The translations under genes were made by a program, and so were the position numbers. The notes below the pieces were generated by a model. The model was not told the DNA's origin, ran no database searches, and worked only from the letters and a program-made list of their open reading frames with translations. From Candidatus Nanohalobium sp. (lineage in GTDB: Archaea > Nanohalarchaeota > Nanosalinia > Nanosalinales > Nanosalinaceae), in the NCBI GenBank assembly GCA_042217555.1, contig JBDGSL010000088.1, forward strand, positions 1-14,513: 14,513 nt of DNA, in the 5' to 3' direction. Numbering within the stretch: the stretch's first letter is position 1; each line of letters opens with the position of its first letter. This document shows, one piece after another, positions 378 through 14,511 of this stretch.

Positions 378-2366
378 TCAACTCCTTTCAAATTCCCTCC
401 AATCTGCACTCCATCTTTCTTTTGCGAATTGGGAGATCCTTTTGCCTCTTTCCTTTACATCACTAACCTGCCATTCAGACTTCTCTAACTCATTTAGCAT
501 TTTAATAGAAGAATTTTTGTATAGGTTTCTATATTTCTCCTCATAAGGAGAGTTACCTTCCTTCTTATTGTCTCCTTTCCCTATTAAGGCAAGATTTCCT
601 AACCTATTCCTGTTTTTGTGATGAGGATTAAGCTTATGTCCAGCTTCTGCGTTCTTAGGAACTAAGTGCTCAATCTCGTATGCCTCATCCCATTCAGTGA
701 AAGGCGAGAATGTATTCATATCAGAGTCAGAACCATTTCTAAGTTCTCTCTCATACTCATAAAGCAAGTATTTTATGGAGGTTTTGTTCCTTATTCCTCC
801 CCATCCATTAGTAAACTCGCCGTCAATGACATCTTGCTTCTCTAAGTAGTCTTCTAGTCTTTCAGTAGAGCACAAGTCATCTAGCTTTTGTTTAAGCCTC
901 TTTTTTATTGTCATTACGCCTTTAGAGGCAGAACTGTACCCCTTATACCTATCATTCTCAGAATTGAAAACCTCCTCAATCAGTTCTGGTTTCGCCCTCG
1001 ACCAGAACAAGTCATTTGCTAGACTTGAAATGAGATTATTATAAGCATTAGAGCCTTGAGCGACAACTAAATTATATCTGAAAGTTAAGCACTCACATAG
1101 GTGTAGAATATCCACAAACTCCTCAGAATCAATATCAAATCTATGGGCAACCGATATGAGCAACGGAGCGAATGTGGTTTCAGCACCTCCATAGGTATTC
1201 AGACCTTGGATTCTATTCCGAGCAACCTCTATAAACTCGCTTTCATCACTAGAATGCTTATCCAAAAATACATCAGGATTGGTAAGCTCTACATAATACT
1301 CTGAAGCAGTTTTCAGCGAATCTACATATGCTCTTATCCACTTCTCGAGATTATCATTATCTACATGACCATAGTTTTCTACCTCTGCCACTCTCCGATC
1401 AATATCCATTGGTCCTTTACGCTTTGATCTTGTATGAGAGGGTTCTCCGGCAAAAGCAATCCAGTGTGCTTTAATCAGCTTATCTAACTCATTATCTCCA
1501 CACCCCTGATATTTTGTTACATTTCTTACGATCTGACCAAAGTCTCGGTATACATCTTGAACATCAAGGTCGCTTCTCGAGGCAGCATATACGATATGGC
1601 TCTTTACCTTATCTAGCAATGTTAGGTCCTTTCCTCGGTTATTGATTACTTTAAACATTCTTGCAGCTTCATCCATATCCTCAACAGACTTTACAGTAAC
1701 TTTCAGCCTTTGAGTAGCAGTCTTAAATACAGAATTGATAAAACTATTATATTCGCTTAACCAATCTGCATCTTCCTCCCTATACTCCTCTCTCCATGTT
1801 TTAATCCGCTCTCTAATAGTTTGTTTAGCGTTGATTATCCTATCCCCGGCAGAATGGCTTACAGAAGTTCTAACATCACTTGCTTCATCCCCCTTTATGA
1901 TCAATCTATTGTAAGCCTCCTGAGAAACCTCACCCAACTCTAGCTTTGGTTCTCCACCTCTCTCCAAATAGGTATTTTCCCAGCTCTCTATTGTATCATC
2001 AATGTTTTTTTCGCCCTCCCCCGGGATATCTTGGTGTTTAATCCATTCTAGTTCTTCGATTAGGCACTTTACTAGAATTGTTATTGTTGTAGCCCGTTGT
2101 TGACCATCTACTATAGAATACTTCTCGAAATTAACGAATTCGTGGACTTCATCTTCTTCACCTCTATCCTCCAAAACAAGAGTTCCAAAATAATGTTCTA
2201 CATCAGAGTCATCTGCTCTCCTATCCATTACAAACTTTATGTCATCTAACAAGTCATTAACATGTGAAGATTTCCAAGAATATTCTCTCTGATATTTCGG
2301 GATCACGAAGAGAGATTGATTAAACACAGAAGCTAACTTGAAGTCATCATCAGGGATTCCATCCAT
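378..2366 (-). CDS. DUF262 + DUF1524 (HNH) protein, GmrSD/SspE-like restriction nuclease, 662 aa
   Basis: DUF262 motifs IPKYQREYSW, YFGTLV, IVDGQQRATT and FKVINNRGKDLT. C-terminal HNH-type motifs EIEHLVP and RLGNLALIGKGDN. Confidence 0.92.
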   Translation of the reverse strand: MDGIPDDDFKLASVFNQSLFVIPKYQREYSWKSSHVNDLLDDIKFVMDRRADDSDVEHYFGTLVLEDRGEEDEVHEFVNFEKYSIVDGQQRATTITILVKCLIEELEWIKHQDIPGEGEKNIDDTIESWENTYLERGGEPKLELGEVSQEAYNRLIIKGDEASDVRTSVSHSAGDRIINAKQTIRERIKTWREEYREEDADWLSEYNSFINSVFKTATQRLKVTVKSVEDMDEAARMFKVINNRGKDLTLLDKVKSHIVYAASRSDLDVQDVYRDFGQIVRNVTKYQGCGDNELDKLIKAHWIAFAGEPSHTRSKRKGPMDIDRRVAEVENYGHVDNDNLEKWIRAYVDSLKTASEYYVELTNPDVFLDKHSSDESEFIEVARNRIQGLNTYGGAETTFAPLLISVAHRFDIDSEEFVDILHLCECLTFRYNLVVAQGSNAYNNLISSLANDLFWSRAKPELIEEVFNSENDRYKGYSSASKGVMTIKKRLKQKLDDLCSTERLEDYLEKQDVIDGEFTNGWGGIRNKTSIKYLLYEYERELRNGSDSDMNTFSPFTEWDEAYEIEHLVPKNAEAGHKLNPHHKNRNRLGNLALIGKGDNKKEGNSPYEEKYRNLYKNSSIKMLNELEKSEWQVSDVKERGKRISQFAKERWSADWREFERS

Positions 2367-2635
2367 ATTGATTTTTCTTTAATCCATTCTTATGAACTTT
2401 ATTCAGATTTAGAGCCAAAAATCCAGCTTTTCGCACACATAATGAAAAAGCTACTTGAAGTTTGATGACCTATAATTTTTCAGAGAAAACCTTCGGGATA
2501 TGTAGTAATATGCTAGAAGCCCCGAGAGTGAAAGGATCTAAGCATCAACTGTCTGGGTATAGGAAGGTTATAAGGAGAGTATTAAGTATCTAACGCCTTC
2601 CTTCACTCTTATATTCTACACTACTTGTAGAGATA

Positions 2636-4420
2636 TTAGTAATTTTTTCCAAATATCTCCATCAGCTTATCCTCAATCAAACTCTCTCTTCTTTCTTTAA
2701 ATTCTAAGAAATTTCCGAAGTCATGCATTCTTTCCTCTTGAGGGATTAAATGCTTCTCAGGGGATTTCTCAGACTGTTGCTTGATCCACTGTTTAAAGTC
2801 CTCGTCATTTTTGGTTCTATTCTCACTACCAGTCAATAATTGAAGATTACCTAAATCATTGTAAGATTCCATATACCTGCTGATTTTCTCTTCGGAATAA
2901 CCTCTTTCTCGCAGTTTTTCTTCATCAAACTTTGAATCAGGGAATATGTGATCCACATGGTACTTTATGTGGCCCCAGTCAGATCGGTCATATAGGAGGG
3001 TTAAAGCTAGGAAGGTTCTTTTCTTGCCATATTCAAACCCTAAGATATTATCTATAATTTCTTCGTTAAACCCTACAGTCTTACCTCTGCTTTTTAGTTT
3101 AGAATTAATTTTTTCGACAGGGAACTCTTCATCGGCCTCAATTGCTTCTCTAGCATCACGAAGGACCGTATCAGACTGGCCTCCAAATGTTCCATTAAGT
3201 AAAGAACTGAAGAACCATTTTTGGATCCTTCTTCTCGTTTCAGCACTTGCCTGATTTTCACCGTAAAGGTCGGCTTTAGGGTTTTTCATATAGAAGTAGG
3301 CTATCGGTATGAGAGCATTTTGGCTTGTAAGATTATTTGAGTCTACTCCGAAGCTGTTAACTAACTTAACTGCTTTTTCAATTGCTTTCTTTATATCTTC
3401 CCAGTTCTCTTTGATCTTTTCTAAGTTGCTTGCAGTGAAATTATCAACCTTATACCTTACTGGGAGCTCAGATAGCACCAACGAACTTTTTAGAACAAAA
3501 TCTTTATCGAAGTCGTTATCTTCGTTGAGGTTTTGATTGATATGGTCTACGAAGTTAGTTATCTCTTCTCTTGCGTTTATTTCATCTCCTGAACTGTTTT
3601 TAGCCCAGTTACCTACTGCCATAGAAAGAAGAAGATCTGACTTAGTTAATTGTGTTCCCCCATCATTAGTTCTTATGAATATGTCTAGTACCTTTTCCAT
3701 ATCTTGTTCTTTTTCGGTGTAGTAATTGACTATCTCATCTTTCTCAATAACTTGGTGGAGTTGCGTCAGATTATGTTTAATGTGGTATTCTTGCTCTGAT
3801 CCTGACTCTAAGCCACATTTTTCTCGAATTTCATTTATGTGCTCGTGCAATTCTCTGCTGTTATCGAAGTTTAGAATCTCTCCTACTCTATACCAGTATT
3901 CATCTTCATTATTCTCAGGATTGTGTTTGAACTCAAACTCATATTGCAGCCTGATATCTCCATCAGTTGTTTCTTCAGGATCAGAGAGGAGATTGAGATA
4001 AAGCTTTTTCTTTTTCCAGGCATCAGGGTTATTATACTGCTTCCATTTCTCTTTCGATGTATAACTTCCTTTTAAGCCTATATAGAGCGAGGATAGTCTT
4101 TGCTGACCATCTAAAACCAGTCTTATATCTGATTGACCGTTAGCTTCAGTTGTCTGATTCCTATTCAAGGCAGCATGGTTTATGTATTTCTTATTCGTAG
4201 TATAGTTCTGTATAAACTTGTATTTCACATATTCTTCCTTATTTTCCTTTTCAACTTTCCATAGGAGAAATGATCCAATAGGGTACTCTCTCATTAGGGA
4301 ATCGAAAAGCCTGACTATCTGATCTTCATCCCAAACAAACTCCCTCTGTATAGCAGGCAGATAATACTTAGAGTTAATCTTATCCACAGCTTCAGAAATA
4401 CTCTCAGTACTGTAACTCAT
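2636..4420 (-). CDS. DUF262 + DUF1524 (HNH) protein, GmrSD-like, 594 aa
   Basis: LPAIQREFVW, YPIGSFLLW, VLDGQQRLSSL and FIRTNDGGTQLTKSDLL. C-terminal HVDHIFP and DLGNLQLLTGSENRTK. Confidence 0.92.
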   Translation of the reverse strand: MSYSTESISEAVDKINSKYYLPAIQREFVWDEDQIVRLFDSLMREYPIGSFLLWKVEKENKEEYVKYKFIQNYTTNKKYINHAALNRNQTTEANGQSDIRLVLDGQQRLSSLYIGLKGSYTSKEKWKQYNNPDAWKKKKLYLNLLSDPEETTDGDIRLQYEFEFKHNPENNEDEYWYRVGEILNFDNSRELHEHINEIREKCGLESGSEQEYHIKHNLTQLHQVIEKDEIVNYYTEKEQDMEKVLDIFIRTNDGGTQLTKSDLLLSMAVGNWAKNSSGDEINAREEITNFVDHINQNLNEDNDFDKDFVLKSSLVLSELPVRYKVDNFTASNLEKIKENWEDIKKAIEKAVKLVNSFGVDSNNLTSQNALIPIAYFYMKNPKADLYGENQASAETRRRIQKWFFSSLLNGTFGGQSDTVLRDAREAIEADEEFPVEKINSKLKSRGKTVGFNEEIIDNILGFEYGKKRTFLALTLLYDRSDWGHIKYHVDHIFPDSKFDEEKLRERGYSEEKISRYMESYNDLGNLQLLTGSENRTKNDEDFKQWIKQQSEKSPEKHLIPQEERMHDFGNFLEFKERRESLIEDKLMEIFGKNY

Positions 4421-4535
4421 TAACTATGAAATGAACTTGAAGCCTTATCAAAATTTAGAACATCCTGATCTCATTTTTACACTACGAACAACAATTAAAG
4501 AAAAATATGTAACAGTTGATGGTTCATGAGCTATT
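4421..4535. promoter_or_regulatory. Putative divergent archaeal promoter region
   Basis: 115-bp AT-rich gap between divergent ATGs at 4420(-) and 4536(+). GAAAAATATGTAA (4500-4512) lies about 30 nt before 4536, and a TTTGATAA-like box lies about 30 nt before 4420 on the minus strand. Confidence 0.45.
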
Positions 4536-5471
4536 ATGGCCTTAGACGAACTTGAGAAAGTAGATCTGAGAGAAGAATGGGAAGATGAAGAAGCAGATTT
4601 CACCCCATGGATAGCAGATAACATAGAAAAAATAGAAGAAGTACTAGGAATGGAATTAGAAGTAAAAGACACCGAAAAATCAGCGGGATCTTTCAAAGCA
4701 GACATACTTGCAGAGGAACCTAATACAGAAAAAGAAATTGTAATAGAAAACCAACTAGGAAAGTCAGACCACAAACACCTTGGCCAGCTAATAACTTATG
4801 GTTCAGGTATTGAAGCCTTTACAGTAGTCTGGATATGCAGAAACCTAAAAGATGAACATAGAAAGGCCATAGACTGGCTAAACGAATCAACCAGAAAAGA
4901 CACCAACTTCTTCGCCCTGGAAATTGAACTCTATAAAATAGGAAACTCCAATCCAGCACCTAAATTTGATGTAGCGAGCGAACCAAATGAATGGTCAAGA
5001 AGAGTAAAGACTGAAACTGAATCACTAAGTCCTGTAGAAAAACTAAGACAGTCTTACTGGACAGAATTTAGAGCACATCTAGAGGAATCAGAACCACCAT
5101 TCTCCTTGAGAAACCCCTGGGAGAAAGCTTGGTACAGAGTAAGCATAGGCCGTTCTCATTTCGGAATAAATTGCAAAATAAGCAAACAGAAGAACAGATT
5201 AGCCGTAGAACTTTACTTTGATCCTGAACACGCAGAGAAATACTTCGACATGCTAAAGGAGGATAAAGAAGAGATTGAAGCAGAAATAGGCTCAGAGTTA
5301 GAGTGGGAAAGACTAGAAGGTAAAAATGCTTGTAGAATAGCATTATACGACAGATCTTCAGATGTAGAAGACAGAGAACAATGGGAAGCCCAATTCAACT
5401 GGCTGGAAGAAAACCTATACTCCTTTTACAACACCTTCAAAGGAAGAGTAAAGGAGCTAAAACTAGAATAA
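4536..5471 (+). CDS. PD-(D/E)XK (EndoNucS-like) nuclease with C-terminal DUF4268 domain, 311 aa
   Basis: N-terminal EEADFTPWIADNI, ADILA...IVIENQLGKSDHKHLGQLITY. C-terminal RQSYWTEF, KEEIEAEIGSELEWERLEGKNACRI and QWEAQFNWL are typical of DUF4268. Confidence 0.88.
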   Translation: MALDELEKVDLREEWEDEEADFTPWIADNIEKIEEVLGMELEVKDTEKSAGSFKADILAEEPNTEKEIVIENQLGKSDHKHLGQLITYGSGIEAFTVVWICRNLKDEHRKAIDWLNESTRKDTNFFALEIELYKIGNSNPAPKFDVASEPNEWSRRVKTETESLSPVEKLRQSYWTEFRAHLEESEPPFSLRNPWEKAWYRVSIGRSHFGINCKISKQKNRLAVELYFDPEHAEKYFDMLKEDKEEIEAEIGSELEWERLEGKNACRIALYDRSSDVEDREQWEAQFNWLEENLYSFYNTFKGRVKELKLE

Positions 5472-5494
5472 CAAGCTCAGTCTAAAAATAGAGA

Positions 5495-6256
5495 GTGAAA
5501 GAAATGAAAAACATGCCTAATATAGTGCAGATAGCTACTAAAGACATTTTGTACTACGAAGAATCTAAAGAAGAGAAACTTCTCAATTTTTGTGATGACC
5601 ACAATATCGATAGACTTCCAAGCTATAATGGAAAATATAAGTACATTAAGAGAGAAGATAAGTTTCAAAAAAAGGAAATAAAAGAAAAGGAAACGCTAAA
5701 AGCTTCTAAAGGATCTTTAGACAGCCAAGTTATGGAAAAATTTTCCGAAGAAGAATTCATATTTGTTTATAGAAACAATGAACTAATGGGCATTGCCTAC
5801 TTTTGCGACTATAACAGTGGCGTAATCTATGAGCATTTATATCAGAGAATTTATGAGCTAGAAACAGACATAAGAGAACTTCTAAGAAAGGAAAATCTTG
5901 ACTCTTCTGATATGGTCGAATTTATTGAACAGCATCCTATTTTTGAAAAATCCAGTAAAAGACATGATCCAGAGAATATCAAGAGTCACAGGCCTTTCCA
6001 AAATTCTAATCTTTCGGAATTAGTGAACTTTCTGCATGATAGAAGTGAATTCAGTCTAAAAATTGACCAGAGCAATCTAACGGATCTAAGAAATAAGGTA
6101 ATGCATGAAAAACAGTTTGTAGAGCATAATGACCACCAAGAAGATTCAATGGATTACGATCCAGAAACCTTCAAAGACTTCCGTAGAATGGTCAGAGTAT
6201 TAAGTGAATCTGAAAGTAAGGTTAGAAATCACATCAAATTGAAAGAGATGGATTGA
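5495..6256 (+). CDS. Putative CBS-like + HEPN (Swt1-like) domain protein, ~250 aa
   Basis: HEPN RxxxxH motif in DLRNKVMH, preceded by IYELETDIREL. The N-terminus has CBS-like NIDRLP and FIFVYRNNELMGIAYFCDYN. The start may be GTG 5495, ATG 5504 or ATG 5513. Confidence 0.65.
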   Translation: MKEMKNMPNIVQIATKDILYYEESKEEKLLNFCDDHNIDRLPSYNGKYKYIKREDKFQKKEIKEKETLKASKGSLDSQVMEKFSEEEFIFVYRNNELMGIAYFCDYNSGVIYEHLYQRIYELETDIRELLRKENLDSSDMVEFIEQHPIFEKSSKRHDPENIKSHRPFQNSNLSELVNFLHDRSEFSLKIDQSNLTDLRNKVMHEKQFVEHNDHQEDSMDYDPETFKDFRRMVRVLSESESKVRNHIKLKEMD

Positions 6257-6269
6257 GCATGATTTTGCA

Positions 6270-6524
6270 CTAGACATTTTCTGCCAGTTCTTTCATTTCT
6301 TTCTGTAGTTTCTGAAATTCTTTTGCCTTAAGTTCTCTTTCTTCTTGGAGTTCGTTCATTTTTCTGTGAGCTAATTTAATTGCAAATCTGGTAACTGCCG
6401 AGTTTCCTGTTTTCTCAGTTACAGAGTCAGGAACTTCCTCATCTAGGTATATTCTGAGATCTTCAAACTGATTCTTCCTTAACTCACTCTTCAGAATTGC
6501 TCGGGCTTCAATATCATCAGTCAT
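6270..6524 (-). CDS. Small hypothetical protein, possibly ribbon-helix-helix-like with a coiled-coil tail, 84 aa
   Basis: ATG start with an upstream TATA box. The strand-helix-helix pattern (IEARAIL / QFEDLRIYL / NSAVTRFAIKLA) is followed by a charged helix. The fold is inferred. Confidence 0.65.
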   Translation of the reverse strand: MTDDIEARAILKSELRKNQFEDLRIYLDEEVPDSVTEKTGNSAVTRFAIKLAHRKMNELQEERELKAKEFQKLQKEMKELAENV

Positions 6525-6544
6525 AAGTTTTGATTATGTCTTAT

Positions 6545-6552
6545 TTTATAAA
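6545..6552 (-). promoter_or_regulatory. Putative TATA box for 6270..6524 (likely leaderless transcript)
   Basis: TTTATAAA lies 21-28 nt upstream of ATG 6524. Confidence 0.55.
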
Positions 6553-6816
6553 TGACTTTGGAAGTTAGGGGTAAAAACCGAATAAATACAATCGGAAAAT
6601 GAGCTATATCGGAGTTTTTACACTAAAAATGTCAGATATTTCTGTAAATAGCAAGAATTGGCTGAAATTATTGGAATATTAATCTCGATACTACTCATTG
6701 TTTCCAATAATAGGATGTCAAAAATCGCCTCTAGTTTGCCCAAGATTAGATGGGAGAAAGGGGTAAAACCACATACTTCCCTTGGATATACAAAGGAAAT
6801 TGGGTAAGAAATTATT

Positions 6817-7731
6817 GTGACGGAAGATAAAGAGGATATTTACAGATTAGTTGATAGGTATCTCTGGGAGAACTATCCCTTTTCTGATAAAAGAGCATTT
6901 TTTCAGAAGCCTCTAGCCTACTTGTTTAACGGCAGTAAAGCCTCAGAAAAGTGGAGCAAGGAAGATGTGGAAAAACTATCTGAGGAACTCCAGGATAAAT
7001 ACAGTGAGGGAGAATATTGGCTTTGCAGAGTCTTTGAAGGCAGTTTACAGATAAACGCTATTCTATTAGTTTCTAGGGGAGAAATTAGACTGTTAGGTAT
7101 TAATTCAGAGGATAAATCCTTGCACTCTACTGCAGAGGTTCCTTATGAAGGCCTAGAAGTTAGAAAGAGAGGTAATAATCTTTTTGTTGAAAATGGTCTT
7201 GAAGGAGAAAGAAAGGAGATAGAACTGCTCCTGAGAGATTCTGATGAAGTTAATGAGGCAAAGGATAAGATTCTGGAGTTTATCCAAGAGATGGACTTGG
7301 AGGAGATACAAGGGAGATGGATTAGTAAGGAGAATGTGAAAGAGTATCAGCAAGCTCTTAAGTCCATAAATGAAGGTTTCAGGCATTTTACGCCTACTGA
7401 GTTCGAGTATTTCATAGGGTATCTTTTCCAGGAGAAAGGATTTGATGTAGAGGTTACTCAGCAATCAAATGATTATGGTGTTGATGTGATTGCAGAGGAT
7501 GAAGAGTCAAAGATAGCTATCCAGGTTAAGAGAAAGAAACCAGGCAATAAGGTAGGTTCCAAGACTGTAAGAGAATCATTAGGTTCTCTACACAAGTACA
7601 ATGCAGATGAGGCTCTCATAGTTACAAGTTCATCATTCACAAATCCTGCCATAGAACAAGGAAAGGACTCTCCTATCAAATTATGGGATAGAAGTATCCT
7701 GAAAGATGAAATTGAGAAAGTTATACTGTGA
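6817..7731 (+). CDS. Mrr-family (Mrr_cat) restriction endonuclease with an uncharacterised N-terminal region, 304 aa
   Basis: PTEFEYFIGYLFQEKGFDVEVTQQSNDYGVDVIA...IAIQVKR...VGSKTVRE...ALIVTSSSFTNPA...IKLWD is the canonical Mrr_cat signature. GTG start. Confidence 0.9.
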   Translation: MTEDKEDIYRLVDRYLWENYPFSDKRAFFQKPLAYLFNGSKASEKWSKEDVEKLSEELQDKYSEGEYWLCRVFEGSLQINAILLVSRGEIRLLGINSEDKSLHSTAEVPYEGLEVRKRGNNLFVENGLEGERKEIELLLRDSDEVNEAKDKILEFIQEMDLEEIQGRWISKENVKEYQQALKSINEGFRHFTPTEFEYFIGYLFQEKGFDVEVTQQSNDYGVDVIAEDEESKIAIQVKRKKPGNKVGSKTVRESLGSLHKYNADEALIVTSSSFTNPAIEQGKDSPIKLWDRSILKDEIEKVIL

Positions 7732-9679: not shown

Positions 9680-9808
9680 TCCCCAGAATTGTAACAATAA
9701 TTGCCAAGCCCCGAGAGAGCTAGATATTAGCCGTACAAACTCTCTGCTTGTCGTGTCTTGCCATACTCCTTCCTTCTGTTGGCTTTTCAAGTGAACATTG
9801 CCGTCAAG

Positions 9809-9818
9809 TTTTTAAATA
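9809..9818 (+). promoter_or_regulatory. Putative TATA box for the gene starting at 9848
   Basis: TTTTTAAATA lies 30-39 nt upstream of ATG 9848. Confidence 0.55.
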
Positions 9819-9847
9819 ACTACAGCACCTCACACACCACAACTCAA

Positions 9848-10564
9848 ATGAAATGAAAGGTCCGACTCGACGGAAACGAAAGAGGGCTGGAAACACTAGC
9901 CGAGAGCTTCACCGACGACCCCGAAGTATTCAAGGATGACGACAACTTCTTTCTCCGGAGCTCTCAATTCGAGGACCTCGAAGACGCCGATGAAGTACGA
10001 GATACCGCAGAGGAGATCGTCCGAACCATCCGAAACCTAGGAGCCAAAGACTCGCTAAGAACCGAGGACCTGCAGGCCTCTCACGTACACGAAATCAACG
10101 AGGACGGTACTGAGCACGTCACTGTTCGTGCAGAGAGCTCTACGGTCAAGATGAGAGCAGGTCCTGTCCGGGTGACCACAACAGATGAGGATGGGAACAA
10201 GAGTGTTCACAGGCCTGCTGATCGAACCTACGAATTGACTCAGCTGGCTGCTGAAGACGATAAGGTACGAGAATTGGTGGCCTTGATCGATAAAGGAGAC
10301 GACTGGGTGAACCTCTACCGACTCTACGAATTCATCCAGGCAAACATCGACGGAGACGAGAACATCGTTGACAGAGGCTGGTGGTCCAGCAACGAAAAAG
10401 ACCGGTTCAAACAGACCGCTAACAGCCGGGACGCAATCGGCGACAATGCCCGTCACGGCCAAGAAAGAATACCCGCACCAGACAACCCAATGACTTACTC
10501 AGACGCGAAGGCCTTAGTTGACTCACTCATCCGGGACTGGCTAAAACACAGAAGGGAGCTATAA
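9848..10564 (+). pseudogene. ~238-codon gene interrupted by an in-frame TGA at codon 3; possible HEPN-like C-terminus
   Basis: ATG AAA TGA AAG GTC CGA CTC... reads MK*KVRLDGNERGLETLAESFTDDPEVF... and continues without another stop into ORF 10151..10564 (DWVNLYRLYEFI, RFKQTANS...GDNARHG). Confidence 0.75.
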
Positions 10565-10609
10565 CTTCGCCGACCAAGCAAATAAATATCGAGACATCTG
10601 TGTCCAAGT

Positions 10610-10939
10610 ATGTCTATTCAAGGCACACTCAACATTTTGCTCCCATCGCTAATATCATCTGTATCGATTATCTTTGTTGCAGTTACGTTCTTTATTGGAC
10701 AATATGAAGAAAATAAGTATGATATCCCCGCTGAGCGATACGCAAAGTCAATCCGACTTATGAACTTAGCGTTAGCACCAGCAATATTATCACTGTGCTC
10801 TATCGGGATACACTCGCTTGGGATTGGTAATCATTGGACTATCCTGTTTGCCTGGGTTTTATTAGCAATGGAAGCTGTCGTTCTTGTGCTAAGTGTCATC
10901 TGGGTAAGCCACAGCACCCTAGATGGCGGCCTAATTTGA
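10610..10939 (+). CDS. Membrane protein with three predicted TM segments, 109 aa
   Basis: Three hydrophobic stretches, ATG start and AAATAAATA 22-30 nt upstream. Confidence 0.75.
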   Translation: MSIQGTLNILLPSLISSVSIIFVAVTFFIGQYEENKYDIPAERYAKSIRLMNLALAPAILSLCSIGIHSLGIGNHWTILFAWVLLAMEAVVLVLSVIWVSHSTLDGGLI

Positions 10940-10946
10940 TCAATCC

Positions 10947-11294
10947 ATGTTTGGAGATCAACCAGAAAAAATTCCAGACGCAGAGGCAGCAGAGCAGATA
11001 TTTGGTGATAGAGAAAAAGGAAAACTAGAGGAGGTGTATAAATCTGAAACCGGCCCGGATGGAGAGCCACTAGCTCACAAAGCAGCTAAAGACTTCTGCG
11101 ACCAAAATGGAGAGAACGAATACGAGATCCCCTCAGGCAGCTCCCCCGGAGAAACTGCTGGCGTGATAGGGTACATGATCTCCCAGCGAACTGACCTGAT
11201 GCCTAATGTGCTGGACGAGTCTATTAAAGATGGTCAGAAGAAACTAGCGTATATCTATTTTGGAAAGTGTGCTATGGAAAACGGCGACCACTAA
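10947..11294 (+). CDS. Hypothetical acidic protein, 115 aa
   Basis: Starts 7 nt after the membrane protein stop codon, so probably co-transcribed. Ends tail-to-tail with the uL15 fusion. Confidence 0.7.
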   Translation: MFGDQPEKIPDAEAAEQIFGDREKGKLEEVYKSETGPDGEPLAHKAAKDFCDQNGENEYEIPSGSSPGETAGVIGYMISQRTDLMPNVLDESIKDGQKKLAYIYFGKCAMENGDH

Positions 11295-11295
11295 T

Positions 11296-12258
11296 TCAGC
11301 CTCTAGCCTCCAGTCGATCCTGCACAAGGAACAGATACCGTTTTTGATTAGTTGAGACGATCTGATCTTGGGTCTCTTTGTCACCACCAAATACGTTATT
11401 ATCTGTCCGTCGAATTCGCTCCTCTCTCTCCTCCAAAATCCCCCGAATTTCTGAATAAGAAATCCGTTCCGGAAGACCCTTTGATACATCTTCCAAATAA
11501 GATTCGGATAGATCTACGTCGCTAAAATAGCTATCTAACAGATCATCAGCTATTTGCGCCTCAATTCCATAGTCCTCAGCCAGCTCTCTTAGATGGTATA
11601 AGCTGACAGCATCCCCTGCCGATATTGTATCCGATGATGAGTACTGCTCTAGAATAATATCTCGTACAGCCTCTAGCTCGCCCTCTTTCTGACCAATCTC
11701 CAGCAGTTGATCCACTTCATCGTACTGAAGCTTCTTTCCCTGCTCAACTATCGACTTTTTCTCCTCCAAGTACCCCTGAATGTTTCCCATATGTTCACCT
11801 ATACTAGTTGATTTTTTTATTGATGATTGGTCAGACGTTAGCGCCCTACCCCCAGCTTCCTCAATTTGCTGCACAGCAGGATCAGTGAACTCATCAGCAA
11901 TAACAACCAACTCCTGTCTAACCCGGCCATTACCCAACACTTTCACGCCAGCAGAATCTGGAGACTCCTCAACGACGTCACGTGCATCTATCCGATATCC
12001 AAATTCTGTTTGTTCAGCAACACCCTCCTCAACCCATAAAGCTACATTCTCATCTAATTCTCGAACTGTGATCTCATCAAACTCAACCGGGTTCGGTTGA
12101 GTAAATCCGTCTTTACCTAAAGGCTCGTAATTCTGCTGTTCATGTTTGTCTCTCCCGGCTCGTCCTCTACCTCCTCGATGGCCTGCACCCCGCCTGTTCT
12201 TATGACTACCGCCACCGTGAGTACGGGAGCCGCGCTGTCGACGTTTCTTGGTTGTCAT
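11296..12258 (-). CDS. Ribosomal protein uL15 (L15P) homolog fused to a ~180-aa unknown C-terminal domain, 320 aa
   Basis: Residues 1-140 (MTTKKRRQRGSRTHGGGSHKNRRGAGHRGGRGRAGRDKHE...EPLGKDGF...VRELDENV...VKVLGNGRVRQELVVIADEF...IEEAGG) match haloarchaeal uL15 over its whole length. The frame continues for 180 more codons. Confidence 0.92.
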   Translation of the reverse strand: MTTKKRRQRGSRTHGGGSHKNRRGAGHRGGRGRAGRDKHEQQNYEPLGKDGFTQPNPVEFDEITVRELDENVALWVEEGVAEQTEFGYRIDARDVVEESPDSAGVKVLGNGRVRQELVVIADEFTDPAVQQIEEAGGRALTSDQSSIKKSTSIGEHMGNIQGYLEEKKSIVEQGKKLQYDEVDQLLEIGQKEGELEAVRDIILEQYSSSDTISAGDAVSLYHLRELAEDYGIEAQIADDLLDSYFSDVDLSESYLEDVSKGLPERISYSEIRGILEEREERIRRTDNNVFGGDKETQDQIVSTNQKRYLFLVQDRLEARG

Positions 12259-12510
12259 ATGAGTTTTTAGGGTTTCTTCTGGGAACTTGAATATTGGTGG
12301 TCCATGGACATCTGTCTTCTGTCTAACCAGACTGCGTTTAAGCCAGTGGTGTACCTACCGCTATTTCCGTCTTGGTCAAACGGTGGCCAGCCATGGAGTA
12401 ACGTTCCCATTGTCCTCATGTGTTGCTTGGTTTAGTGGTTGGAAAAAGGTTTTCCCAACCTGTACATCTGAGTTGCTTAATATTCCGATGTCTCGAAGAG
12501 TCAGAACAGC

Positions 12511-14511
12511 CTATTCGGGAAGGTTTTCGATCTCGTTGAAGTCCCGAACTGGTCGAAATACTACGTTATCTGTCTGTAGGCCTTTCTCCTCCATCCTTTG
12601 CTGCAATCCCTGGAGGATTTCCTGGTTGCGGGCTGCGACCCAGACGATGAAGTCTTTCTCCAGATGCTTCTCGATGTGCTCTATTTCTCTTGGGTTGTCG
12701 CCCATCGCTACCTCGACCACAAGCTCGGCAGTGTCCATATTCACGTAGACGTCGGCATCGAATACCTCTGTCTCAGCGTACCAGCCTGCTTGTTCGAATG
12801 CTTCCTTGATTCGAGTTTGCCAGTACCTGTGAACGACTCCGCCTCGCCCCCTGTGTTTCGCTTCCAGATCTAGCTCCTCTTCGACGTACTGGCGGCCTTT
12901 CTTCGTCAATTCCAGCAACTTTCGACGTCCACTCTTTGTACGGACCTGCCTCTCGATCAGTACTCCTTCGTCAACGAGCTCGTCCTTGGCCTTGTTTCCC
13001 TTGTACCGGCTAGGAAATTCCCCGTATCGTTCAGTCAAGGGCCTAAACGGATTCTCGACCACGTCCTTCAGTAGGCGGTCTGCTTCGCTTGAAACGTTGA
13101 CTTCTCTTGAAGGATCTTCCGGAGTATCAGGCTCAGGTACCTCACCAGAACGACCTTCCAATATCTCAACTTCGAACTCAGGCGTCGTATCTCTTGGTTC
13201 GTGAGACATGTTGTTCCAGTTCTCGGCCTGGAGTTTCTGAAGTTCGCTATCAGAGATCTGCTTGTCTGCTTCGTGGTTATCGAGTTTGACCGGTACCGGG
13301 TCATGGTTTCCTGTTTGGACTACCGCCTCTCCTACCTCAAGCTCAGAGGCAAACTCCATCTGTCTCTCAGACAGGTTCATTGAGTCTGTGATTGCTTGGA
13401 ACTGCTTCCGGTCGCCTGTAGGCAGCAAAACTTTGGTGTACGTGTTCGCCTTGATAGAATCCGTCAACTTGCTTGCCTCCTGATCACCAACCACCAGGCC
13501 CTCACCGAACTTCCGCATCTTCGCCGTCAACTGATCAATCTCCGGAATACCAGCCGCATCCTGACGCTCCTTGTACACTGAGAAAACCTGCTTCCCTTCA
13601 TCCAAGAGAAACAAGTGCCGTAACTCGTCACCACGCATTCCCTGAGACAAACGGTACTCGTAGACACCAGCAAACAAAATCTCCATCAAAAAGTTCTGAA
13701 CATCCCTGCTGAGACCGTCAAACTCGAAAACCACCCTCCTATCTAGCAGCTCCTCTATCGTAGGACCCTGACTGCATTCGAAGACTGTACCTGCTGTAAG
13801 GTTCATCGCCTCCAACCGATTCAACAAACGATCCCTGTAATCCGCAGCAGTACGAACATAGCTCATCGAATCATTCTCAACCAGTACTTGTAGTTCGTGA
13901 AGGCCTGGATACGGCCCAGAAACCTCCTCAAACAAACCGTACAAGTCGTAGAGCTCAATGATCTTCTTCAACAAGTAATTCTTGGACCCCGAAAGTAGCG
14001 AAGTAGCGTGACCGAAAATTTCGGAGAAAACCTGAGCCCACCTACGAGGAGACACACCACTCGGAGGCCTCAACGGATTCAACTTCAACTCCGACCACGG
14101 CAACACCAGCAAATCATCTTCACGAGCCAAAGGCCTGTAATCCCGCTTCAAATCAAAAACCCAGCACGGAACACCAACCTGATCAAGCAGATTGAAAAAC
14201 AGAGTCGTCTTCCCCGAGCCCGACTGACCTACAGCCAACAAATGCCTCGTTAGATCGCTCTCAGAAAACCGGAAGCACCGGCCATCGAAGGTGTCTCCCA
14301 GCGTAATCCCTCCCGTGAAGGATCTCGATGCAAAAGGATACTCTGAGTTCTCAACTGCTCTCGCTGCAACTACTCGGGAAGCAACTTCCTGCAATACCTC
14401 ACTTCGAGACAGGCCAGAAGCCAGAACCAGCTTCCGTACCTCCTCTTCATCAAGAACGTCATATACTGACGGACATGGGTTTTGATAAGCTTCGACTCCA
14501 AGTGGGGATAT
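12511..14511 (-). CDS. HerA/FtsK/VirB4-superfamily ATPase with C-terminal wHTH and restriction-endonuclease-like domains; start uncertain
   Basis: HLLAVGQSGSGKTT (Walker A), VFDLKRDY, LFLLDEG (Walker B), MRKFGEGLVVGDQ, then LLELTKKG (wHTH wing) and HRYWQ...E..DADVYV...LVVEVA. The frame stays open upstream of TTG 14394 to the window edge. Confidence 0.85.
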   Translation of the reverse strand: MSPLGVEAYQNPCPSVYDVLDEEEVRKLVLASGLSRSEVLQEVASRVVAARAVENSEYPFASRSFTGGITLGDTFDGRCFRFSESDLTRHLLAVGQSGSGKTTLFFNLLDQVGVPCWVFDLKRDYRPLAREDDLLVLPWSELKLNPLRPPSGVSPRRWAQVFSEIFGHATSLLSGSKNYLLKKIIELYDLYGLFEEVSGPYPGLHELQVLVENDSMSYVRTAADYRDRLLNRLEAMNLTAGTVFECSQGPTIEELLDRRVVFEFDGLSRDVQNFLMEILFAGVYEYRLSQGMRGDELRHLFLLDEGKQVFSVYKERQDAAGIPEIDQLTAKMRKFGEGLVVGDQEASKLTDSIKANTYTKVLLPTGDRKQFQAITDSMNLSERQMEFASELEVGEAVVQTGNHDPVPVKLDNHEADKQISDSELQKLQAENWNNMSHEPRDTTPEFEVEILEGRSGEVPEPDTPEDPSREVNVSSEADRLLKDVVENPFRPLTERYGEFPSRYKGNKAKDELVDEGVLIERQVRTKSGRRKLLELTKKGRQYVEEELDLEAKHRGRGGVVHRYWQTRIKEAFEQAGWYAETEVFDADVYVNMDTAELVVEVAMGDNPREIEHIEKHLEKDFIVWVAARNQEILQGLQQRMEEKGLQTDNVVFRPVRDFNEIENLPE

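Follow-up and report, generated by a model that had tools for sequence, protein, structure and literature searches.

The window analysed here is the entire contig JBDGSL010000088.1 (C87; 14,513 nt) of a 1.3-Mb, 94% complete Candidatus Nanohalobium genome (G000). It contains a gene in which ribosomal protein uL15 is joined to a second domain, here called the cargo, followed tail-to-tail by two small genes on the opposite strand. The features are the following:

378..7731, strand not assigned: defence island (context) of the genome's own lineage, with GmrSD-like HEC-06 and HEC-05, PDC-S11/DUF4268 and an Mrr-like nuclease
10610..10939, + strand: gene A, 109 aa, with hydrophobic segments at residues 9-27, 54-72 and 78-96; 7 nt upstream of gene B
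10947..11294, + strand: gene B, 115 aa, soluble and helical, with a C-terminal G-x3-NG motif; its stop codon abuts that of gene C
11296..12258, - strand: gene C, uL15-cargo fusion, 320 aa (P0001), an unbroken open frame
12100..12258, - strand: basic N-terminal rRNA-binding tail of uL15 (residues 1-53 of gene C), keeping 33 of the 34 positions near-invariant in canonical haloarchaeal uL15
11827..12099, - strand: uL15 globular domain (residues 54-144), with moderate drift
11795..11800, - strand: AGGTGA, Shine-Dalgarno-like, 4 nt before the internal Met157
11299..11790, - strand: cargo domain (residues 157-320), 164 aa in eight helices, with no Pfam family and no fold match
12511..14511, - strand: HerA/TraD-like P-loop ATPase of a mobile element (context), open at the contig end

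Residues 1-144 of gene C aligned end to end with 1s72_L, a uL15 chain of solved structure (E 1.4e-49), the Pfam PF00828 match covering residues 73-139. The tail is basic (15 K/R versus 4 D/E); in uL15 it has a structural role, making buried contacts with 23S rRNA. The window copy keeps 52 of the 56 positions near-invariant in canonical sequences, 33/34 in the tail and 19/22 in the globular domain. The identity of its globular domain to those of 46 canonical haloarchaeal uL15 proteins has a median of 49%, while among the latter this value is 62%. A first-pass annotation, made from the sequence alone, had described a nearly canonical tail and a drifted globular part; the tail is as described, but the drift is only moderate in this copy. 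The in-frame fusion and the lack of ribosomal neighbours reported there were both borne out, since the 320-aa frame is open throughout and none of the 14 other window ORFs scanned matched a ribosomal gene in Pfam. Gene C lies outside the spc operon and is much longer than the 137-172 aa of 54 canonical uL15 proteins. The canonical uL15 gene of G000 was found on contig C12 in the spc order uL18-uS5-uL30-uL15-secY; gene C is therefore the extra copy that had been supposed.

The uL15 and cargo parts are connected by a linker of about 12 aa, and the added domain begins at its own methionine, Met157. What had been seen as some 180 acidic, helical residues is indeed acidic and helical, although it resolves into this linker and a 164-aa domain. 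The AGGTGA preceding Met157 is presumably a Shine-Dalgarno sequence, and Met157 is a possible separate start of the cargo. A cargo-only member of 164 aa (P0146) falls in the P0003 cluster. No uL30 remnant was found upstream of four fused genes, and a search for longer fusions, a weak test, returned only known uL15 forms.

The cargo domain was modelled by AlphaFold2 as eight helices (pLDDT 90.2, pTM 0.84) and is strongly acidic (38 D/E among 164 residues), which makes a direct attack on rRNA unlikely. Across 67 cargo sequences, 14 positions were conserved in at least 55%; most are hydrophobic or aromatic, the two acidic ones reach only 66-67%, and no polar residue is invariant. This pattern suggests a non-enzymatic interaction domain rather than an enzyme. 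Searches with the cargo retrieved no Pfam or NCBIfam family, no PDB sequence better than E 0.048 and no usable match in the ESM Atlas, and Foldseek comparison of the model with PDB and BFVD gave nothing at E ≤ 0.001. The best VIA-align hits (helical repeats, eIF3a, Vps35; Z up to 7.1) were below the noise level for helical proteins and were set aside. The absence of a fold match is not proof of a new fold. In PADLOC-DB 2.0, P0001 gave only a weak match to PD-T7-3 (E 0.0035).

The fusion is not confined to the window. The same C-terminal domain was present in 33 of 77 non-self matches, at identities from 73% down to about 28%, and fused proteins occur in named isolates (P0069 in Halobellus rubicundus, P0017 in Natrinema sp.); the retention of the fusion by homologs is thus established. 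Members of the window's subfamily are exactly 320 aa long. Comparison of tail codons 1-53 of gene C with six canonical and three fused genes gave pS values of 0.84-0.98 versus pN values of 0.09-0.16 in all nine cases, and the GC3 of gene C is 0.40, compared with 0.74-0.93 for canonical genes. With synonymous sites saturated and pN low, the DNA has drifted while the tail peptide was kept, so that the tail is under strong purifying selection, as the first-pass annotation had surmised. In 36 fused proteins, the median identity to canonical uL15 was 81% for the tail (87% among canonical proteins) and 47% for the globular domain (62% among canonical proteins). Measured against 46 canonical sequences, these fused proteins keep a median of 97% of the near-invariant positions in the tail and 82% in the globular domain, where the minimum is 14%. 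Several members retain the tail alongside a globular domain decayed to 25-35%. An [ATP]DGG motif was noted in nine of the 36 (P0024, P0067-P0070, P0073-P0075 and P0080), mostly within insertions of the uL15 globular part.

The first-pass annotation considered gene C on its own; the fusion was recognized correctly, but not the three-gene cassette in which it lies together with the membrane protein A and the small soluble protein B. The layout A-B with convergent C was observed in the window and in genomes G222, G492, G025 and G565. In G463, B stands beside a cargo-only C, and A is partly masked. At six of the seven cargo loci read, B and C share this layout, with stop codons that overlap or stand within 11 bases of each other; this tail-to-tail overlap, with no room for terminators, makes antisense coupling possible. 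Leave-one-out scores exceeded those of all 500 shuffles for five of five A and six of six B proteins, and three hydrophobic segments were predicted in four of the five A copies at the cut-off used. The window B is only weakly linked to the others (6.3 bits, versus a shuffle maximum of 4.7). By these scores, A and B are homologous across loci, the window B weakly so. Gene A is linked to both B and C. The B model had low confidence (pLDDT 58.8). No PADLOC family was detected for A or for four B proteins, nor a Pfam or NCBIfam family for A or B. Matches of B to Mu-like prophage I clusters in the ESM Atlas had just 141-157 features in common with it and were dropped.

The cassette is rare: of the haloarchaeal genomes searched, in overlapping samples, it was found in 2 of 401, 3 of 257, 1 of 31 and 0 of 232. 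Profiles for B and for the cargo matched the same two of the 401 genomes of the class, and among 70 genomes of the window's own phylum (0.5-1.7 Mb) the B profile matched only G000 and G025, as did the cargo profile save for a weak match in G039 (E 6e-5, inside a 1026-aa ORF), which was left out of the counts. All four other fusion carriers keep a canonical uL15 gene beside uS5/uL30. In G565, A, B and C alone form an insert of about 2 kb with 59% GC within a core-gene region of 70% GC, which marks the limits of the three-gene unit. Judged by comparison of these loci, A, B and C travel as a unit. The cargo has also been found apart from it: the complete genome G052, of the window's own family, carries a 128-aa distant cargo homolog (L096:6857-7243; 30 bits with A2) without A or B, directly upstream of aIF5B in an eL8/aIF5B translation cluster; only the window gene resembled it among the 70 genomes of the phylum. 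No match came from locus scans that used the window cargo, and none of the 80 loci of genome scan A1 matched past residue 179. Three weak matches of metagenome scan A4 were all dropped; the one inspected (L104) was a chance match beside a DnaB-like gene.

Defence or mobile genes neighbour the cassette at four loci: the window (GmrSD/HEC, PDC-S11 and Mrr which, with the HerA/TraD-like ATPase, confirm the defence and mobile context first noted), G463 (McrBC), G222 (PDC-S39, within a tRNA-Thr integrase element with VirB4/TraD-like genes) and G025 (a ParE/RelE-type toxin pair). Around the G565 and G492 cassettes, no clear defence genes were seen. Each locus read is a chromosome insert, an island or an integrative element; neither four pattern-limited IMG/VR scans nor 50,697 phage records nor the plasmid records searched gave a match.

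The two arms of the contig differ in origin or composition. On the left, a congeneric complete genome has a gene 79.5% identical to GmrSD, and the ORF at 6270-6524 (- strand; 84 aa, no family) has counterparts in G037 and G049 at 75-82% identity, indicating that this arm comes from the genome's own lineage. The G037 homolog of this ORF stands before a small gene, a pair that looks toxin-antitoxin-like by eye. The right arm, from about position 9800, has a higher GC content, with a step from about 0.38 to 0.52 near 9853-10564, and its ATPase is 57% identical to one located some 7 kb from the G492 cassette. A 235-codon open frame lies at 9853-10564 (+ strand), its apparent ATG (9853) one base out of register, pointing to either a frameshift close to the start or an error of assembly. 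A TANS..ARH motif at its C-terminus resembles that of HEPN-like RNases, and it had no Pfam or PADLOC match. No terminal repeats or tRNA were found in the window. The tetranucleotide profile of the contig is atypical but resembles that of other low-GC contigs of the bin, and is thus uninformative on foreign origin. The contig could be a chimeric join of its two arms. Words of the region 9700-13500 were present at shares of 1.00 and 0.99 in assemblies of two salt-lake runs of one study, both possibly the source (runs X3-X21, with small word shares, were left out of this check). Even so, the cassette is present elsewhere in the same family, as G025 contains an independent integration (L094:3317-5296) on a contig that also encodes GluRS and shares genes with G000 at 46-72% identity; the uL15 of this copy is truncated, about 13 codons being missing from its start, where it meets a piece of an ATPase gene. 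Elsewhere in G000 (C84:2004-5423), the P-loop of aIF5B is broken by an in-frame insert of ~597 residues with a Cys start and a His-Asn end, by eye an intein.

The uL15 part of gene C is up to 67% identical to canonical proteins of Halobacteria and 36% identical to the own uL15 of G000, whose tail reads quite differently. It was thus probably imported from the haloarchaeal host lineage, and may be a poor match for the ribosome of G000. Haloarchaeal and nanohaloarchaeal viruses are reported to exchange genes (bioRxiv 10.1101/2025.02.15.638363). In a quick tree of 91 rows and 146 columns, every fused uL15 part lay among Halobacteria, with nine changes between fused and canonical labels, at least two of them forced by starred branches. 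An AU test rejected a single clade of fused uL15 (p 6.4e-5; 10 fused rows, mostly short-branched and picked after seeing the 91-row tree, plus 24 canonical rows). P0020 nests in Halorubrum, with 83% identity to Halorubrum uL15; the uL15 part of P0018 is at most 65% identical to any canonical protein compared, and the cargos of the two are 63% identical. The rejection and this mismatch imply more than one event in which the uL15 part was either newly captured or exchanged through recombination. The uL15 fusions are spread all over the cargo tree, which fits, with weak support, an old uL15 fusion followed by later swaps.

The docking part is not always uL15. A search of 1.84 billion representatives with the cargo profile gave 49 matches, 17 of them with a uL15 part. 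In P0089 (four cluster members; NCBIfam above cut-off) the cargo is fused to a full eS4, and in P0109 (three members; hhalign 95.6%) it is inserted in a thermosome subunit. A further three matches are coiled-coil fusions, and 18 are proteins of 200 aa or less without uL15, some of which are probably partial gene calls; these include P0091, which branches elsewhere in the cargo tree and has an N-terminus that by eye looks like the final part of eS4. The repetitive P0113 was excluded from the counts. In P0092, P0094, P0096, P0095, P0102-P0107, P0112 and P0114, the cargo was seen before long coiled coils or after unrelated low-complexity N-termini. Among uL15, eS4 and thermosome subunits, the docking part thus appears to be exchangeable, which argues against a cargo acting at one ribosomal site.

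Incorporation of C into ribosomes is probable in haloarchaeal carriers, and docking of the cargo on the ribosome, which the first-pass annotation had proposed, is still its most likely role. Beyond this, A, B and C quite possibly constitute a mobile, self-contained antiviral cassette of the guard type, in which the sentinel is docked on the ribosome and the effector lies in the membrane. The borrowed uL15 (or eS4) part would let C be incorporated into host ribosomes, on whose surface its non-enzymatic helical domain would be exposed; ribosome-bound C, acting through the soluble B, would hold the membrane protein A silent. If a virus or parasite remodelled, degraded or took over ribosomes, or bound the borrowed protein, C would be lost or released, and the freed A would damage the membrane or stop growth, resulting in abortive infection. 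Both the toxicity of A and a bridging role of B between A and C are pure conjecture. The window copy would represent a haloarchaeal-type cassette brought by a mobile element into the defence island of a small-genome host; this host is probably nanohaloarchaeal, and the cassette may be less effective there, or decaying. A sentinel is preferred over an effector since uL15, eS4 and the thermosome share no site, being alike only as abundant, essential parts of protein synthesis, and since a small membrane protein travels with the unit. Several findings speak against this reading: any mobile cargo may lie in a defence island, the surroundings in G565 and G492 lack clear defence genes, A, B and the cargo match no PADLOC, Pfam or NCBIfam family, the layout is known from only seven loci, the window B is weakly linked to the others, the G025 copy is truncated, and the cargo is found in G052 with neither A nor B, and elsewhere behind other N-termini. 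Still more tentatively, such cassettes might form a hitherto undescribed class of archaeal immunity in which the sensor arises by repeated capture of uL15, eS4 or chaperonin genes, guards the translation machinery from inside and signals via a small partner to a membrane effector, the whole crossing from haloarchaea to their small-genome symbionts with a host-type tag. Were the guard reading correct, archaea would monitor their ribosomes against viral takeover.

Alternatively, in line with the translation-arrest idea of the first-pass annotation, C could itself be the effector, docked on the ribosome and blocking translation once unmasked, with B as its antidote and A as a membrane sensor. Its carriers include two different ribosomal proteins, the free cargo gene of G052 lies within a translation gene cluster, and the convergent arrangement would allow antisense control of a toxic C. 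However, uL15 (50S), eS4 (30S) and the thermosome are unrelated places for a cargo whose acidity fits poorly with an attack on rRNA; further, the lack of a conserved catalytic residue or toxin-like fold makes a translation-arrest effector less likely than a sensor or adaptor. This alternative is considered unlikely. Selfish addiction, with A (or A plus B) as the toxin and C as an antidote stabilized on ribosomes or chaperonins, would serve maintenance of the element and would account for a cassette that moves alone (G565), is rare and patchy (2/401, 3/257, 0/232) and lies near toxin-antitoxin pairs. It is nonetheless distinctly unlikely: a long-lived, ribosome-bound antidote would be poorly suited to post-segregational killing, and that the part taken from the host was renewed again and again points to an arms race.

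As a modulator of translation, C would mark a subset of ribosomes that B and A tether to the membrane or bias towards the mRNAs of the element, a role of the kind proposed for ribosomal proteins encoded by viruses. The absence of matches in the pattern-limited IMG/VR scans and the phage and plasmid records, together with the G565 insert, which has no element genes to serve, renders this improbable. Very improbably, C acts outside ribosomes, as a general RNA-binding tag or as a free decoy that baits viral proteins targeting uL15, eS4 or the thermosome, on the model of plant integrated decoys. Decay of the globular domain in several members with the tail retained, and the persistence of an intact copy in G000, where the resident uL15 has 36% identity to it, would suit a decoy; the near-invariant positions kept in the tail (median 97%) are in keeping with its buried 23S contacts and go beyond the needs of a generic basic tag. 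A neutral accident, in which a stray uL15 gene lost its stop and read into its neighbour or a chimeric contig was assembled, is scarcely credible given the 33 homologs, the saturated synonymous sites with conserved amino acids, the repeated capture and the fixed length of 320 aa in the window's subfamily, even though the linker resembles DNA that once lay between genes, and a start signal persists for the cargo.

The favoured guard cassette, if such it is, is a testable three-gene system small enough to be moved into Haloferax. Whatever its role, it would provide a naturally evolved way of loading a protein onto archaeal ribosomes. A literature search found no description of a uL15 fusion or of an A-B-C cassette in the texts covered, supplements and most subscription papers lying outside that coverage. 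The architecture appears to be new, although the way the cassette works could yet turn out to follow a guard-type or toxin-antitoxin scheme in modified form. Gene C has in common with canonical archaeal uL15 (PF00828; 1s72_L) the fold domain and the basic N-terminal extension, but it is an orphan second copy from a lineage other than the genome's own. Type II toxin-antitoxin modules consist of two co-oriented genes, whereas the cassette has three, with C convergent, and no Pfam or NCBIfam toxin family. As in the integrated decoys of plant NLRs, host housekeeping domains have been repeatedly captured onto one partner; unlike these, the cassette is archaeal and has no NLR/STAND ATPase.

Small membrane effectors under guard control are described for retron Ec48 (bioRxiv 10.1101/2020.06.21.156273) and for Panoptes OptSE (PMC12657218). 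The likeness to these systems lies in the proposed logic only, a sentinel on a host component plus a small transmembrane executor, and in defence-island location. In contrast to them, the cassette has no detected reverse transcriptase, RNA, or nucleotide-synthesizing or nucleotide-binding domain, and is unrelated to them in sequence; what is guarded would be the ribosome, with a ribosomal protein physically acting as sentinel. Virus genomes also carry ribosomal proteins, including bS21 and bL12 (PMC6375957), and haloarchaeal Hafunaviridae encode eL21 (PMC8651126). As in those cases, gene C is an extra, host-derived gene on a mobile element and under purifying selection. Virus-encoded ribosomal proteins are described there as free and mostly exchangeable, whereas here uL15 or eS4 is fused as a putative docking tag to a foreign domain, accompanied by two partner genes of its own, and gave no match in the virus collections searched. 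Mobile DNA is so far known to carry ribosomal proteins as free spare parts; in this cassette they would be renewable address labels for a foreign domain.
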